Shown here: positions 3,522 through 10,205 of the stretch, one piece after another
Layout of the letters: every line of letters begins with the position of its first letter
How positions within the stretch are numbered: the stretch's first letter is position 1
Source of the DNA: a virus
Lineage: Duplodnaviria; Heunggongvirae; Uroviricota; Caudoviricetes
DNA: 10,205 nt
IMG/VR virus record: IMGVR_UViG_2531839454_000024
Strand: one strand, 5' to 3'
Notes under the pieces: model-generated
Told to the model about the DNA's origin: nothing
The model's database searches: none
What the model saw: the letters and a program-made list of their open reading frames with translations, nothing else
Translations under genes and position numbers: made by a program

Positions 3522-3550
3522 CTGCCGTGTTCATTACATAACACGGCAGG
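3522..3550 (+). promoter_or_regulatory. Perfect 10-bp inverted repeat (CTGCCGTGTT-9 nt-AACACGGCAG) just upstream of alpA
   Basis: Arms 3522-3531 and 3541-3550 are exact reverse complements. The loop is CATTACATA. The right arm abuts the weak alpA SD. Could be a terminator for the upstream orphan gene (no U-tract) or an operator or RBS-sequestering hairpin. Confidence 0.35.
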
Positions 3551-3557
3551 TAATTTC

Positions 3558-3773
3558 ATGACATTAAAAACTTATCCTATCACTGGACATGCCCGCCCAC
3601 GAGCTACTGCTGACTTTTTGCAAATAAGTACGGTTACTCTCTGGCGCTGGGAAAAGAACAATCCTGAATTTCCCAAATCTATACGCATTTCAAAACGGGT
3701 ATCTGTTTACGATGCACAAGAAATTAGGCAGTGGGTTAAAGCTCAATCAGCAGGATTGGAGGAAGTAGTGTAA
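3558..3773 (+). CDS. alpA: AlpA-family phage transcriptional regulator (excisionase-like HTH)
   Basis: 71-aa protein with the Phage_AlpA-type pattern FLQISTVTLWRWEKNNPEFPKSIRIS...VYDAQEIRQWV. Located downstream of a P4-type int, as in CP4-57-type islands. Confidence 0.85.
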   Translation: MTLKTYPITGHARPRATADFLQISTVTLWRWEKNNPEFPKSIRISKRVSVYDAQEIRQWVKAQSAGLEEVV

Positions 3774-4693: not shown

Positions 4694-4978
4694 ATGAATA
4701 TTTCAAACGGGCACAACGGTGCTCAGGGCCACACTTTGCCTGAAAAACACAATACCGGTGCTTTTGCCTATGGGTTGTCAGAGGACAGTTTCGGAAAGCT
4801 GACCCGCGCAAAAAATGCCTGCGACATGCTCCAGCTTCTCTTTTCTGAATACCCGTCTCAGGCCGGAGCACTGGACGCTGGCTGTGCGCATGGTGTCGCC
4901 GCGCTGATGGAGTACCTGCTGGCAGATTTGACGGATATTGCACACAGCTGCGCACTGATTGAAGGAGGTGCCAGATGA
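4694..4978 (+). CDS. Hypothetical protein, 94 aa
   Basis: ATG 4694 preceded by GGAG (4681-4684). Its stop overlaps the next start (ATGA at 4975-4978). Confidence 0.6.
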   Translation: MNISNGHNGAQGHTLPEKHNTGAFAYGLSEDSFGKLTRAKNACDMLQLLFSEYPSQAGALDAGCAHGVAALMEYLLADLTDIAHSCALIEGGAR

Positions 4979-5358
4979 ACCAGCCGCAGGTTTCCATTTT
5001 CCCGGCAGAAATGACCACCGCGCTTTACCGGCGGGCTATTGCTTCAGCATGGCGGCAGAAAATGCTGAACGAAACTGGTAGTGATCAGTATGGTCCGCAC
5101 AGCCTGACGGTGGAGCGTATTGAAATGGCCATTGCGCTGCATATCGAGTGCGTACTGATTAACGAGTACGGCGAAGTGCAGGGCGCCGCTGCCGCGCTGG
5201 CACTGCTGACTGACATGCTGGAGCCATCACTGCTGACCGCGCCGCCGGTACTGACCGCGCGCGGCTGTGAAGTGATGGCGGAGATGTACCGCACGCTTCC
5301 GGCGGCCTTTGATGACTTCTGCAGTACCGGTGTGACGTTGTATGAGGGGGAAGTATGA
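4975..5358 (+). CDS. Hypothetical protein, 127 aa
   Basis: Translationally coupled on both sides (ATGA overlaps at 4975-4978 and 5355-5358). SD-like GAAGGAGG upstream. Confidence 0.6.
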   Translation: MNQPQVSIFPAEMTTALYRRAIASAWRQKMLNETGSDQYGPHSLTVERIEMAIALHIECVLINEYGEVQGAAAALALLTDMLEPSLLTAPPVLTARGCEVMAEMYRTLPAAFDDFCSTGVTLYEGEV

Positions 5359-8027
5359 CAATACAGACGGTTACGCAGATTTCAGCCGCCGCACGGGGGA
5401 AATGGCCCGTTATTCTGCAGATGCTGCGTATTGATGTACCTGAAAACGGCAGGCACGGCCCCTGCCCGAAATGTGGGGGCAAGGATCGTTTTCGCCTTGA
5501 TGACCTTGACGGGCGCGGGACGTGGATCTGCAGCCAGTGTGGCAATGGTGACGGTCTGGATCTGGTTAAGCTCGTAACCGGTTACAGCGTCAGAAAGGCT
5601 GCGCAGGAGGTGGCGCAGGTGCTTAATGTGCCGGATGTGCAGGAACTGCCTGTTAAGCCTGCCAGACAAAAAGCCCCTAAACGCGACATGGGTCTTACCG
5701 TGGCGGCGCTGATGAAAGAGAGCCACACGGGAGAAAGCGCCTATCTGACAGGAAAAGGGTTCGCCGGATACCCGGCCTCTCTGACCGGAAGCGTGCAGCA
5801 TATCAGCGGTAAGGATTTTCCTGCCGGTTCCCTGCTGTTACCACTCACGACCAACACCGGAGCCGTGACCGGTGCACAGCTTATCGCCCCGACGGGTGAA
5901 AAAAGCATACTGCCCGGCAGCACGATGAAAGGCGCGTTTGTGTCGCTCAGCCCGTTACCGTCTGAACCACCGGTACAGGTGGTGATTACCGAAGGTTACG
6001 CTACGGCGCTGACGGTAAGCCAGCTCACTGCCGGATGCGTAGTGGCTGCCATATCTGCGGGCAACCTGCCCAATGTGGCGCAGTCGCTGCGGGCACGCTG
6101 GCCTGAGGTAAAAATTATCATCGCCGGTGATAACGATTTTCAGGACGGGGGGGAGAATCCCGGCAGAGCCTTTGCTGAACGGGCGGCAAAAGCTGTTGGC
6201 GGCTGGATGACGCTGCCACCAGGAGAGATTAAGGCTGACTGGAATGACTTTCATCGGGAGCACGGTATTACCCGTGCCCGTGAAGCCTTTCGCAACGGTC
6301 TGGTACTGTGCGGGGAAGGCCGCACGCAACTGCCGCACGGGTTCCGTCTTACCCAGGAATATCTCTGGTATGAAAAGCAGGTACAGCGCAACGGTGAGAC
6401 GGAGATCCAGAACGTCAAAATATGCAGCCCGCTGCGCGTGACGGCAATCACCTGCGATGCCGATGGCGGTAACTTCGGACGACTGCTGGAATGGGAAGAT
6501 ACGTGGGGTGAGTGTCGCCGCTGGGCGATGCCGATGGAAATGCTGAGCGGCAGTGGTGAGGAACTGCGCCGGGTACTGCTGGTTAACGGGCTGTCTTATA
6601 TCAGCACCACCGGTGAGGCACGCGCACGCCTGATGGAATATATCTCACTGTGTAAACCGGAACGCCGCGTGACCTGCGTCAGTCGTACTGGCTGGCATGG
6701 TCAGGTTTACGTCCTGCAGGATGAGGTCAGCGGTGAAGGTGCAGAGGGTGTCATTCTCCAGACCACTTCCGTGCAGGGGCGTGATTTCCGCGTGTCGGGC
6801 ACAACAGAGGAATGGCGGGAGCATGTATCCCGCTACTGTACCGGCAACTCCCGCGTGGCATTTGCTGTCAGCCTGGCCTTTGCTGCACCACTGTTACGGC
6901 TGGTTGGTATGGACGGCGGCGGCTACCACCTAAAAGGGGAATCGACAGACGGTAAGACCACCACCATGAAAGCGGCAACCTCCGTCTGCGGCGGGCCTGA
7001 CTACTGGCAGACATGGCGGGCCACCGGCAACGCGCTGGAGGGATGCGCCAGCCGCCGCAACGATGCCGCCATGATGCTTGATGAGATCCGGGAAGTTGAC
7101 GGACGCGAGGCAGGCAATATCGCCTACATGCTGGCAAACGGTCAGGGCAAGGGCCGTGCCGGTACGGACGGTGAGCTGCGTACCCGTAAGCAGTGGCGCC
7201 TGTTGTTCTTTTCAACTGGCGAGTTGTCTCTGACCGAACATGCGGCAAAGGCCGGTGAGCGTACTTTTGCCGGGATGGAAGTCAGGATGATCCAGATCCC
7301 AAGCGATTCCGGGAAGTTTGGCGTTTTTGAGGAGCTGCACGGCTTCGACAGCGGCAAGGCTCTGGCAGAGCATCTTGAATGGGCCACGTCCTGCTACTAC
7401 GGTTCGCCGTTCCGGGAGTGGCTGAAAGCACTGACCGCTGATCTTAACGGACTAACGGCACAGGCAAAATCGCTGATGAAGGAATATGCTGCCGCCCTGA
7501 CTCCTAAAGATGCAGGCAATCAGGTGGGCCGGGCTGTGAACCGCTTTGCACTGGTGGCGATGGCAGGTGAACTGGCAACCCGTCTGGGTATCACCGGCTG
7601 GCCTGAGGGTGAAGCACTGCGGGCAACCCGCGTCTGCCTGAACGCATGGCTGAAAGATCGCGGGCACACCGCCAATCAGGAAGATATCGCCGCACTGGAG
7701 CAGGTTCGCAGTTTCTTTACCGCGAATCAGTACAGCCGCTTTGCAGACTGGTATGACGAGCGCAACCGCCCCGGCAATATGGTGGGCTGGCGCAGGGTGG
7801 AGAAAGGCAGTACCGCGCAGGGCACGGAAGCTGTCACTACGTTCTATGTCATGCCGTCCGGCTGGAAAGAAATCTGCAGGGGATTTGACCCGCGTAAGGT
7901 GGCGCGTCTGTGCGCAGATCGTGGATACCTGCTGCCCTCCACTGATGGCAAACTCCAGACAACCATTCGCCCGCCAGAGATGAATCCCCGCAGGCTCTAT
8001 GTCTTCAACAGCGAGGTGCCGGGTTAA
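5355..8027 (+). CDS. Primase-helicase, P4 alpha-like (zinc-ribbon + TOPRIM + P-loop NTPase, DUF927-type)
   Basis: 890 aa. N-terminal CPKCGG...CSQCG zinc ribbon; TOPRIM-like ITEGYATALTV and IIAGDND; Walker A GESTDGKTT and Walker B-like MMLDEI. Iteron array lies immediately downstream. Confidence 0.9.
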   Translation: MTIQTVTQISAAARGKWPVILQMLRIDVPENGRHGPCPKCGGKDRFRLDDLDGRGTWICSQCGNGDGLDLVKLVTGYSVRKAAQEVAQVLNVPDVQELPVKPARQKAPKRDMGLTVAALMKESHTGESAYLTGKGFAGYPASLTGSVQHISGKDFPAGSLLLPLTTNTGAVTGAQLIAPTGEKSILPGSTMKGAFVSLSPLPSEPPVQVVITEGYATALTVSQLTAGCVVAAISAGNLPNVAQSLRARWPEVKIIIAGDNDFQDGGENPGRAFAERAAKAVGGWMTLPPGEIKADWNDFHREHGITRAREAFRNGLVLCGEGRTQLPHGFRLTQEYLWYEKQVQRNGETEIQNVKICSPLRVTAITCDADGGNFGRLLEWEDTWGECRRWAMPMEMLSGSGEELRRVLLVNGLSYISTTGEARARLMEYISLCKPERRVTCVSRTGWHGQVYVLQDEVSGEGAEGVILQTTSVQGRDFRVSGTTEEWREHVSRYCTGNSRVAFAVSLAFAAPLLRLVGMDGGGYHLKGESTDGKTTTMKAATSVCGGPDYWQTWRATGNALEGCASRRNDAAMMLDEIREVDGREAGNIAYMLANGQGKGRAGTDGELRTRKQWRLLFFSTGELSLTEHAAKAGERTFAGMEVRMIQIPSDSGKFGVFEELHGFDSGKALAEHLEWATSCYYGSPFREWLKALTADLNGLTAQAKSLMKEYAAALTPKDAGNQVGRAVNRFALVAMAGELATRLGITGWPEGEALRATRVCLNAWLKDRGHTANQEDIAALEQVRSFFTANQYSRFADWYDERNRPGNMVGWRRVEKGSTAQGTEAVTTFYVMPSGWKEICRGFDPRKVARLCADRGYLLPSTDGKLQTTIRPPEMNPRRLYVFNSEVPG

Positions 8028-8061
8028 GGCTTTGCGTGAGTCTTATTTATTAAGGGTAACA

Positions 8062-8249
8062 GGTGAAACAGGTGGAACAACCGTATTTTACAGGGCTGAA
8101 CCTGTTCCACCTTCTGAAATAGTGAGGTGGAACAGATGTAACGCCAGCCAATCCGCTGTTCCACCTTGTTACCCGCGATGTTCCACCGGTGCAGTGTATA
8201 TAAATGCTTTATAAAACAAAGCAGTAACACATGTTTCACCTGTTCCACC
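8062..8249. repeat. Iteron array, probable satellite replication origin
   Basis: Eight copies of the 9-mer TGTT(C/T)CACC. Plus orientation at 8103-8111, 8157-8165, 8179-8187, 8232-8240, 8241-8249; minus orientation at 8062-8070, 8071-8079, 8126-8134. Tandem pairs at both ends in opposite orientation. AT-rich stretch 8194-8231 sits between clusters. Confidence 0.6.
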
Positions 8250-8337
8250 GCATCAGGGACATAAAGCAGACTGAAACAGAGGGTATTTTTATCTGGCTGG
8301 CTTTCATAGCCACGTCTGAATAACCGCAAGCGTCCGT

Positions 8338-8393
8338 TGTGCCAGCCACCACACACTGAGCACCGATAGTGTGCTTGTGTCAGCCACGACACA
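8338..8393 (+). promoter_or_regulatory. Psid-like late promoter with two Ogr/Delta-type TGT-N12-ACA dyads
   Basis: TGT-N12-ACA at 8338-8355 and again at 8376-8393, centres 38 bp apart. ATG 8428 with SD AGGAG 8418-8422. Spacing is compatible with activator sites near -55 and -18 relative to a start around 8400. Confidence 0.5.
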
Positions 8394-8427
8394 ATTGACG
8401 TAACGAACCAACCCGACAGGAGAAGTC

Positions 8428-9171
8428 ATGAACAACACCGCAGTGAATAACAACCTTTCCACTTTTCCGGCTGTAACGCAGCGGGCACTGGAAACCATGA
8501 ACACAGCCAGAAACGCATGGCTTGAAGCACGTCGTCAGCAGAAAGCGGCAGCGGATAATATTGCGACAATCCGCCAGCGTCGCGCTGAAATGGAAGCCAC
8601 GACGAACACACTGAATGAGGAGTGGCGCACGCTGTTTCGTGAAAGTCAGGGCGTGGTCTCAAAGGAAATGAAAAAACTGCGCACGGAAATTGCGCTGGGA
8701 CGAGAAACGCTTGAGGATTTTGATGAGCTGCTGGCGGCTCAGGAAAGCGAAAATGCACTTTTGCCGCAGAAAGCTGCGGAATTAGCCGGAAAGTATATCC
8801 ACGCGCATAACATTCTTGTGGATATTCGCGCAAAACAAATCTGGGAAGATTTTATGCAGTCGCATGGAAAAGCGCTTATTCAGACGCTGAGCCTGCTTAA
8901 ATCCACAATGGGCCGGGAAGCCAGTGCCGTTGTGGGTGTGGTGAATTCAGTTAATGACCCGGACACAGTGCTGAAAGACTTTATTCATAAACATATCACC
9001 AGACCGGCTCTGGCTAACGATGCGATGCCTGAACAGGACCCGGTGTTTAAACTGGCGGGAGTTGCCCCGGATTATGCGGCGCGTCTGGATTTCAGTAATC
9101 AACTCTCTCCGGCAGCTATGCATAAAATAAAGGTTCGTCAGGAACTTGCTGAGAAGGAGAAAGCTGTATGA
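8428..9171 (+). CDS. Sid/Psu-family protein, probable capsid size determination (Sid-like) protein
   Basis: 247 aa (P4 Sid is about 244 aa). Helical, A/E/K/R/Q-rich. Contains WEDFMQSHGKAL, the same motif class as the next gene's SNFMQANGAAL. Sits behind the late promoter. Confidence 0.45.
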   Translation: MNNTAVNNNLSTFPAVTQRALETMNTARNAWLEARRQQKAAADNIATIRQRRAEMEATTNTLNEEWRTLFRESQGVVSKEMKKLRTEIALGRETLEDFDELLAAQESENALLPQKAAELAGKYIHAHNILVDIRAKQIWEDFMQSHGKALIQTLSLLKSTMGREASAVVGVVNSVNDPDTVLKDFIHKHITRPALANDAMPEQDPVFKLAGVAPDYAARLDFSNQLSPAAMHKIKVRQELAEKEKAV

Positions 9172-9719
9172 CGGCCCGAGGCACACCTGACCAGGCACTT
9201 ACCAGTTTTCGGAATGCCCGTATTCTGTGGGCCGGACATAGTGAGACCCGAAAAGCCGTTGAACAACAGATAGCATCTCTCCTCGCTGCCACAGAAAAAC
9301 CAACAGATTATGCCCGACAGCTCGAATTACTGCGGGAACGTCTGGATGTGCTGAAATGGCAAATTAACTGTGCTGCTCGCGAATGCATTTACTCGCAGCA
9401 TTTATTGATGGAGGCCTGCACTGAAGCTGCTCTCAGCAATTTTATGCAGGCGAATGGGGCAGCCCTGACATCTGCACTGGCTCCGTTCCTGAAGGGGCGC
9501 GGAGGGGTTGACGTTGCGTCCCGTATATTACGCAGTGCTCTGGTTCGCCAGCTGGCAATAACACCGCCTGAAATTGCCGGGGATTATCGTGAGATCCTGG
9601 ATGAATCCGGTTTGATGCCAGACCCCGGGATGATTCGTGATTGCCAGGGCTCTTACACCCCGGCACAACATCTGCGTTTTCAGCAACGCCTGAATGACAT
9701 TAACGATATACAGGAGTGA
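9168..9719 (+). CDS. psu: Psu-like polarity suppression protein
   Basis: 183 aa (P4 Psu is about 190 aa). Motifs KWQINCAARECI, FMQANGAALTSALAP and YTPAQ match my recollection of P4 Psu. Start ATGA overlaps the upstream stop. Followed by an Ogr/Delta-like gene. Confidence 0.6.
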   Translation: MTARGTPDQALTSFRNARILWAGHSETRKAVEQQIASLLAATEKPTDYARQLELLRERLDVLKWQINCAARECIYSQHLLMEACTEAALSNFMQANGAALTSALAPFLKGRGGVDVASRILRSALVRQLAITPPEIAGDYREILDESGLMPDPGMIRDCQGSYTPAQHLRFQQRLNDINDIQE

Positions 9720-9724
9720 TATTA

Positions 9725-9848
9725 ATGGCACTTAAATGTCCGGAATGCGGTACAGTTGCACACGCCAGAACAGCAGCCTATGAAGCTCCGTCAGTTAAAC
9801 GCTCGTGGTATCAGTGCCAGAATCTGGAATGTTCCTGCACATTTACGG
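9725..9848 (+). pseudogene. Ogr/Delta-like zinc-finger late-gene activator, truncated by IS66-family insertion
   Basis: MALKCPECGTVAHARTAAYEAPSVKRSWYQCQNLECSCTF aligns to the P2 Ogr pattern C-x2-C...HARTS...QCQN..C. Homology stops near codon 42, where the IS end GTAAGCG begins (9849). SD CAGGAG 9711-9716. Confidence 0.7.
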
Positions 9849-10205
9849 GTAAGCGACTCGTCAGAACCGTATTGATATTTACTGAGAGCTCAGATCAACT
9901 TTCCAGGGCAACAGATCGCGTACCCGGTTTGCCGGCCAATCCTGGATATGTTCAATGACGTAACGCAGCCACTTTTCTGGCTCCACATTGTTCAGACGGC
10001 ATGTGCCGATCAGCGAGTACAACACCGCCGCATGTTCACCACCGCTGTCGGAACCCGCGAACATCCAGTTTTTCCGGCCTACGGCCACTCCCCGTAAGGC
10101 GTTCTCTGCGATGTTGTTGTCGATTTCCACCCAGCCATTACTGCAGTACACGTTCAGTGCATCCCACTGTTTCAGCAGGTATGCGAACGCTTTTGCCGTA
10201 TCTGA
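9849..10205 (-). mobile_element. IS66-family insertion sequence, right-hand end only (continues past window edge)
   Basis: Terminus begins GTAAGCG at 9849-9855, typical of IS66-family ends. Carries the C-terminal part of an IS66-type transposase on the minus strand. Confidence 0.8.
9879..10205 (-). CDS. IS66-family transposase (TnpC), C-terminal fragment, 5' end outside window
   Basis: Minus-strand frame is open to the window edge. Translation ...AFAYLLKQWDALNVYCSNGWVEIDNNIAENALRGVAVGRKNWMFAGSDSGGEHAAVLYSLIGTCRLNNVEPEKWLRYVIEHIQDW... is the conserved IS66 transposase C-terminus. Stop TAA at 9879-9881. Confidence 0.85.
   Translation of the reverse strand, partial: SDTAKAFAYLLKQWDALNVYCSNGWVEIDNNIAENALRGVAVGRKNWMFAGSDSGGEHAAVLYSLIGTCRLNNVEPEKWLRYVIEHIQDWPANRVRDLLPWKVDLSSQ

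Follow-up and report, generated by a model that had tools for sequence, protein, structure and literature searches.

The segment at positions 8338-8430 of the window, by which we mean the whole 10,205-nucleotide stretch of DNA analysed here, is very probably the orthologue of the sid promoter (Psid) of phage P4, a late promoter that has a poor -35 region and depends on an activator, to judge from sequence comparison. As such it would drive the sid-psu-delta operon of a P4-like satellite prophage. The window holds just such a prophage, located at tRNA-Arg(CCU) beside yfdC in an enterotoxigenic Escherichia coli lineage, and its delta gene is split by the insertion sequence ISCro1. One enterotoxigenic E. 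coli lineage thus carries a P4-like satellite whose activator appears to have been knocked out recently by ISCro1.

A pattern scan of the 10.2-kb window revealed two exact TGT-N12-ACA dyads upstream of the sid-like gene, both read on the + strand. The distal dyad, site I (TGTGCCAGCCACCACACA, 8338-8355), begins 90 nt upstream of the sid start codon (ATG, 8428) and the proximal dyad, site II (TGTGTCAGCCACGACACA, 8376-8393), starts 52 nt before it. Their centres, at 8346.5 and 8384.5, are 38 bp apart, and the end of the proximal dyad is 35 nt from the ATG. A Shine-Dalgarno sequence, AGGAG, can be read at 8418-8422 on the + strand, 5 nt before the ATG. All of this reproduces what a first-pass annotation of the same DNA had described, namely two exact dyads at 38-bp spacing upstream of a Sid-like gene with its ATG at 8428 and an AGGAG ribosome-binding sequence. 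Site II is an 89% direct repeat of site I (repeat family D4) and forms an extended palindrome, TGTGTC-N6-GACACA.

The probable -10 element of the promoter, CACAAT at 8390-8395 (+ strand), falls within an invariant block, CACAATT, and agrees with TATAAT at four of six positions, A2 and T6 included. With a 17-bp spacer, the -35 hexamer position is occupied by TAGTGT (8367-8372, + strand), the best -35 candidate although it has just two of six matches to TTGACA, so that the weak or absent -35 element characteristic of Ogr/Delta-dependent late promoters is seen here too. T8367 and G8369 are nevertheless invariant in an 18-sequence alignment, in agreement with the column profile, and correspond to the conserved T.G pair of the spacer. 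A consensus scan of 7950-8500 called no sigma-70-type promoter, as expected of an activator-dependent promoter. Site II overlaps both the -35/-10 spacer and the -10 element of this predicted core promoter.

In the RefSeq record of phage P2 the annotated activator sites have dyad centres 55.5 nt (PO, PP) and 57.5 nt (PF) upstream of the transcription starts. Applying the 55.5-nt dyad-centre-to-start distance of the P2 late promoters to site I predicts a start at about 8402 (8400-8404, + strand), 7 nt after the -10 element, and predicted centres of -55.5 for site I and -17.5 for site II. The start, and hence the -55/-18 numbering, is therefore a prediction by homology with P4 and with the P2 annotation. 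It accords with the earlier proposal that a start around 8400 would fit a two-site architecture, and CACAAT would then lie at the -10 place. Footprints of P4 Delta on Psid at -55 and -18 were reportedly obtained by Julien and Calendar in 1995 and by Reiter et al. in 1998. An Ogr/Delta zinc-finger activator would be expected to bind the dyad near -55 and recruit RNA polymerase, with the second dyad, near -18, overlapping the core promoter. Late promoters of the P2/P4 type depend for their transcription on an activator of the Ogr family that touches the alpha subunit of the polymerase.

The conservation of this architecture was assessed across 19 sid loci. Sid homologues were collected, 19 were aligned, and species-representative genomes, one per species, were then scanned for loci. 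The set consists of the window, P4, 16 loci from representative genomes of Shigella, Enterobacter, Citrobacter, Pseudocitrobacter, Pantoea, Mixta, Scandinavium and Erwinia, and a second E. coli P4-like family (locus L020, E. coli 2013C-4225). Sid proteins of the 16 representative-genome loci are 41-100% identical to that of the window, and the range broadens to 23-100% for all 17 loci besides the window and P4. The composite pattern TGT-N12-ACA-N20-TGT-N12-ACA is present in every one of the 19. In each of the 16 scanned loci the two dyads are exact and spaced by 38 bp, the distal one beginning 88-91 nt and the proximal one 50-53 nt ahead of the ATG, and both are also present in L020, where the early genes diverge from sid, as they do in P4. 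Absence or non-conservation of the dyads in homologous elements, named beforehand as a result that would refute the proposal, is thus not what the comparison reveals.

When the 19 loci are compared without gaps, the four TGT/ACA triplets have a mean pairwise column identity of 1.00, compared with 0.50 for the distal N12, 0.56 for the 20-nt spacer, 0.71 for the proximal N12 and 0.48 for the 10 nt upstream of the distal dyad; the ATTGAC that follows the proximal dyad reaches 0.92. In a MAFFT alignment of 18 upstream regions, P4 among them, the invariant columns are TGT, ACA, TGT, CACAATT and the T.G of the spacer. Since the triplets are fixed while the sequence between them varies, the dyads can be regarded as selected features of this promoter family. 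The fixed TGT-N12-ACA-N20-TGT-N12-ACAATT spacing at a Sid identity of only 23-60% argues for strong selection on the -18 site, and the same pattern provides a simple signature for finding sid operons. The annotation of 8338-8430 also marks a promoter that genome pipelines leave out, a point of little weight by itself. When metagenome contigs were searched with the composite two-dyad pattern, 17 matches were returned, none of them followed by a Sid homologue; being AT-rich and at chance level, they were rejected as new sid loci.

The wider gene content of the window resembles that of a P4-like satellite. The yfdC gene (1-933) and tRNA-Arg(CCU) (1009-1081) come first, and the satellite starts after the tRNA. 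There follow the integrase (1269-2543) and a hypothetical gene, an AlpA-type regulator (3558-3773) with an Icd-like gene and small ORFs next to it, a DUF5375 gene (4975-5358) and a primase-helicase (replicase) containing Zn-ribbon, Toprim and DUF927 domains (5355-8027). The late operon, on the + strand, opens with the sid-like gene (8428-9171), an ORF of 247 aa matching PHROG 6165 (E 8.7e-93) and, weakly, Pfam Psu. Its product has 126 homologues, all with PF07455, and is 23% identical to P4 Sid. Next comes psu (9168-9719, + strand, 183 aa; Pfam Psu, PF07455, E 2.3e-44; RefSeq ‘phage polarity suppression protein’) and then, from 9725, delta, so that the dyads stand directly upstream of a sid-psu-delta operon, as in the Psid subtype. 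From the P4-like core set, integrase, AlpA, primase-helicase, sid and psu are all found while delta is disrupted. Small ORFs, including that at 4694-4978, gave no epsilon/Ash match at the thresholds used, and the element may therefore also lack the helper-derepression function. A copy of the tRNA 3' end (attR) in an IS-free sister locus gives the element a length of around 11.2 kb.

Between the replicase gene and the promoter lie ori-like iterons, eight 9-mers of the forms TGTTCCACC/GGTGGAACA (two are TGTTTCACC) at 8061-8249, in both orientations and belonging to repeat families D1-D3. They flank an AT-rich stretch (8195-8225), and the whole region abuts the promoter on its upstream side. A further late promoter, corresponding to PLL of P4, was sought ahead of the alpA-like gene, but no TGT-N12-ACA was found. 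A perfect 10-bp inverted repeat, CTGCCGTGTT-N9-AACACGGCAG, is present there at 3522-3550, ending 8 nt before the alpA-like ATG. Because it contains TGT-N10-ACA, not N12, it does not qualify as a late-promoter dyad, and its role may be that of an operator or a hairpin.

Two further sequence features of these elements were seen. A motif of about 20 nt, ACCTTTTCC(C)TGGCT(G/T)GCC, is found some 20 nt upstream of the distal dyad in the P4, Pantoea, Mixta and Erwinia loci and downstream of the delta terminator in E. coli-type elements, with L020 having it in both positions. Its coordinates are 9463-9473 in P4 (L001), 11028-11038 in locus L021, and 2582-2592 and 4331-4341 in L020; the copy in the window, CTGGCTGGC at 8293-8301, is weak. 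Downstream of delta and beyond the IS there is a cos-like sequence, GAAGCGGGCAGGCGTGCGGGGCTGCCCGC (L021, approximately 11185-11215), which resembles the P2 right end. A search for the P2/P4 cohesive end that allowed up to 4 mismatches in 19 found no site, so that the cognate helper may have a different cos.

The delta gene survives in the window as a 5' fragment comprising codons 1-41 (9725-9848, + strand), annotated in RefSeq as a pseudogene missing its C-terminus. It is identical to the first 124 nt of an intact 90-codon allele, then diverges. The intact allele encodes 90 residues (L003, 4298-4570, and also L021). Its product shares 47% identity with P2 Ogr across 51 residues and can be aligned to either half of P4 Delta, which has 166 residues, and it is therefore a single-unit Delta. 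While Ogr/Delta activators have a complete domain in an uninterrupted frame, here the frame breaks after codon 41: the fragment covers positions 1-39 of the 47 in Pfam Ogr_Delta (PF04606), compared with 1-47 for the intact protein. In all 17 other loci an Ogr/Delta-type ORF, 90-124 codons long and unbroken, follows downstream of sid.

The interrupting sequence is ISCro1, of the IS66 family, the end of which occupies 9849-10205 on the - strand, terminal repeat GTAAGCG first, and continues past the window. DNA matches of 99-100% to IS copies start at 9848/9849. The complete ISCro1 is 2,699 bp long, has ends GTAAGCG.../...GGTTAC and carries tnpA, tnpB and transposase genes annotated in RefSeq. 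It is flanked by an 8-bp target duplication, ATTTACGG, and the rest of delta resumes after the second ATTTACGG copy. The tnpA-tnpB-transposase arrangement, the GTAAGCG repeat and the 8-bp duplication are all as in the IS66 family. With this boundary, and with a C-X2-C-X22-C-X4-C motif that occurs nowhere else in six frames of the window, the earlier statement that the sole Ogr/Delta-like gene (9725-9848) is truncated by an IS is confirmed. In a DNA search of a phage collection with the window, the IS part alone found matches, P4 being too diverged at the DNA level.

Comparison with complete genomes dates the insertion. Four complete E. coli chromosomes match the segment 8028-9848 at 100% identity, and the window as a whole has 3-4 differing positions with respect to strains 504838, ATCC 43896 and L3_E36_ETEC. 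At positions 326, 992 and 4298 the window differs from each of the three complete genomes with the delta::ISCro1 junction, which makes its source a fourth genome closely related to them; the exact junction is found in just these three of 5,426 complete E. coli genomes. Strain 025542-1 bears the same element at the same tRNA-Arg site without the IS. When the IS and one copy of the duplication are removed, a single mismatch to 025542-1 remains in the first 12,220 positions, beyond which an indel shifts the ungapped comparison out of register. By this measure of sequence identity the insertion is very recent, which is why the promoter is still intact. About 100 other records, with at least 80% of the junction query covered, belong to a different P4-like element, in which delta is intact and ISCro1 lies some 300 bp downstream of it. 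That element occurs in O26, O103 and related strains (for example, L020 4001-7198, E. coli 2013C-4225), and the presence of ISCro1 near delta in it too means that the delta-adjacent region has been struck by this IS more than once.

Several other readings of these data can be considered. It is barely credible that the dyads are chance matches, or part of the adjacent replication origin and not of a promoter. Their number in the window is indeed only mildly above that in shuffled sequence (six exact dyads against 2.5 +/- 1.55, with 5 of 200 shuffles reaching six), one-mismatch dyads are at chance level (50 against 48 expected), and the iteron field lies 90 bp upstream of them. The tally by itself is weak evidence, and the case rests on position and conservation: dyad position and spacing are constant in all 19 loci while the surrounding sequence varies, and a scan of 2.9 million viral contigs for the composite pattern gave no match. 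The iterons, moreover, differ in sequence (TGTTCCACC) and stop at 8249, and a replication-origin role for the dyads was rejected on these grounds. Concerning the Delta remnant, it seems unlikely that the truncated protein is still functional, or that it acts as a DNA-binding zinc finger without activation, possibly interfering with Ogr at late promoters. Its C-X2-C-X22-C-X4-C motif is complete (CPEC-X22-CQNLEC, 9737-9832) with all four cysteines kept, its Pfam match is still significant (E 2.7e-13), and an 80-codon ORF at 9716-9958 with a GTG start (77 codons when counted from the delta ATG, 9725) runs into the IS, fusing 36 IS-encoded residues to it. However, Pfam positions 40-47, eight of the 47 in the conserved domain, are lost together with the C-terminal 49 residues, and in the alignment the break lies a single residue ahead of the counterpart of Ogr T41-Y42. 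Ogr Y42 is the position altered by the ogr mutation that suppresses rpoA109, a mutation in the alpha subunit of RNA polymerase. Since the equivalent of Y42 lies beyond the break, the polymerase-contact region has probably gone from the remnant. The 41 residues left are presumably non-functional. A highly improbable variant of the same idea is that a Delta(1-41)-IS fusion, made when helper Ogr fires the promoter, occupies TGT-N12-ACA sites without activating. If true, such a fusion would damp late transcription of both helper and satellite, making it an IS-made anti-activator against P2-like phages.

The remaining alternative concerns what the loss of Delta means for the satellite. In the ordinary course of events helper Ogr, or basal delta expression, would fire the promoter, Delta would be made and positive feedback would result. 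Since delta lies inside the operon that it activates, such feedback is normal and helper Ogr is already the normal trigger in intact satellites. With delta split by ISCro1, the satellite would probably have lost both this feedback and the capacity to turn on late genes of the helper, and without Delta the promoter would respond only to an Ogr-type protein from a P2-like phage. Its dependence on a helper activator is a reasonable inference. The first-pass annotation had gone further and proposed a distinct ‘dependency state’, which does not stand given that delta is within its own operon and helper Ogr is the usual trigger in any case. Its juxtaposition of an intact promoter with a destroyed activator holds, both being seen, but has no bearing on selection since the insertion is too recent. 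That the lesion has created a stable and adaptive form of the satellite, regulated in a ‘helper-only’ fashion, is accordingly a quite improbable reading, even though the promoter, sid and psu are all intact. The host genomes were searched for a source of Ogr with a tag query, 8028-9848, used alone and then with P2 D-ogr or only the 219-bp ogr appended. By itself the query matched a single place per genome in the four closest genomes. With D-ogr or ogr alone appended, there were two places in 504838 and ATCC 43896, while ogr produced no extra place in L3_E36_ETEC or 025542-1, which serve as controls against cross-matching to delta remnants. These matches make it probable that an ogr-like gene is present elsewhere in the genome of two of the three carriers, giving them a source of activator, although the third, LR882997, gave no ogr match. 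Against an adaptive variant there also stand the rarity of the insertion (just three of 5,426 complete genomes) and the virtual identity of the element to its IS-free twin, which leaves no time for selection. Additionally, the IS enlarges the element from around 11.2 to around 13.9 kb, which may exceed a small P4-type capsid. Lastly, Delta is a core component that P4-like satellites almost never lack (PMC8628076), and a paper cited there, Halling & Calendar (1990), describes delta in its title as essential for P4 multiplication. With Delta almost never missing and called essential, the satellite has most likely just been crippled and has not entered a new dependency state: delta::ISCro1 is a routine lesion and not a new regulatory state.

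Among known systems, the element resembles the ‘P4-like’ family of SatelliteFinder, found in Enterobacterales, in having an integrase at a tRNA gene, an AlpA-type regulator, a primase-helicase, sid, psu and delta. It differs from that family in its interrupted delta and in the lack of an epsilon/Ash match at the thresholds used, and its replicase has Zn-ribbon, Toprim and DUF927 domains rather than matching the profile used for P4 alpha. The Ogr-dependent late promoters of P2 (PP, PO, PV and PF) share with the window the same dyad motif around 55 nt upstream of the start and the same activator family. However, the P2 dyads are imperfect (TGT-N12-CCA, one mismatch) whereas those of the window are exact, and in the P2 late promoter sequences inspected no second dyad was found in the -18 region.

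The closest likeness is to P4 itself. Psid of P4 (NC_001609, approximately 9493-9582) has exact dyads at 9493-9510 and 9531-9548, the only two near sid, and the sid ATG is at 9583. The dyads start 90 and 52 nt before that ATG and are 38 bp apart, exactly as in the window, although their inner sequences and the spacer differ. Certain features of the operons differ too. Gene order is sid-psu-delta in the window and sid-delta-psu in P4, a swap reported for about 20% of P4-like elements (PMC8628076). The intact Delta of the window type consists of one Ogr-like unit of 90 aa, P4 Delta of two such units in tandem (166 aa), and the late operon of the window lies downstream of and co-directional with the replicase gene while that of P4 diverges from the early operon. 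In both, nevertheless, CACAATT comes right after the proximal dyad, ori iterons lie just upstream of the sid promoter (type 1 repeats, TGTTCACC, are annotated at 9310-9413 in P4), and the promoter is placed to drive sid, psu and delta.
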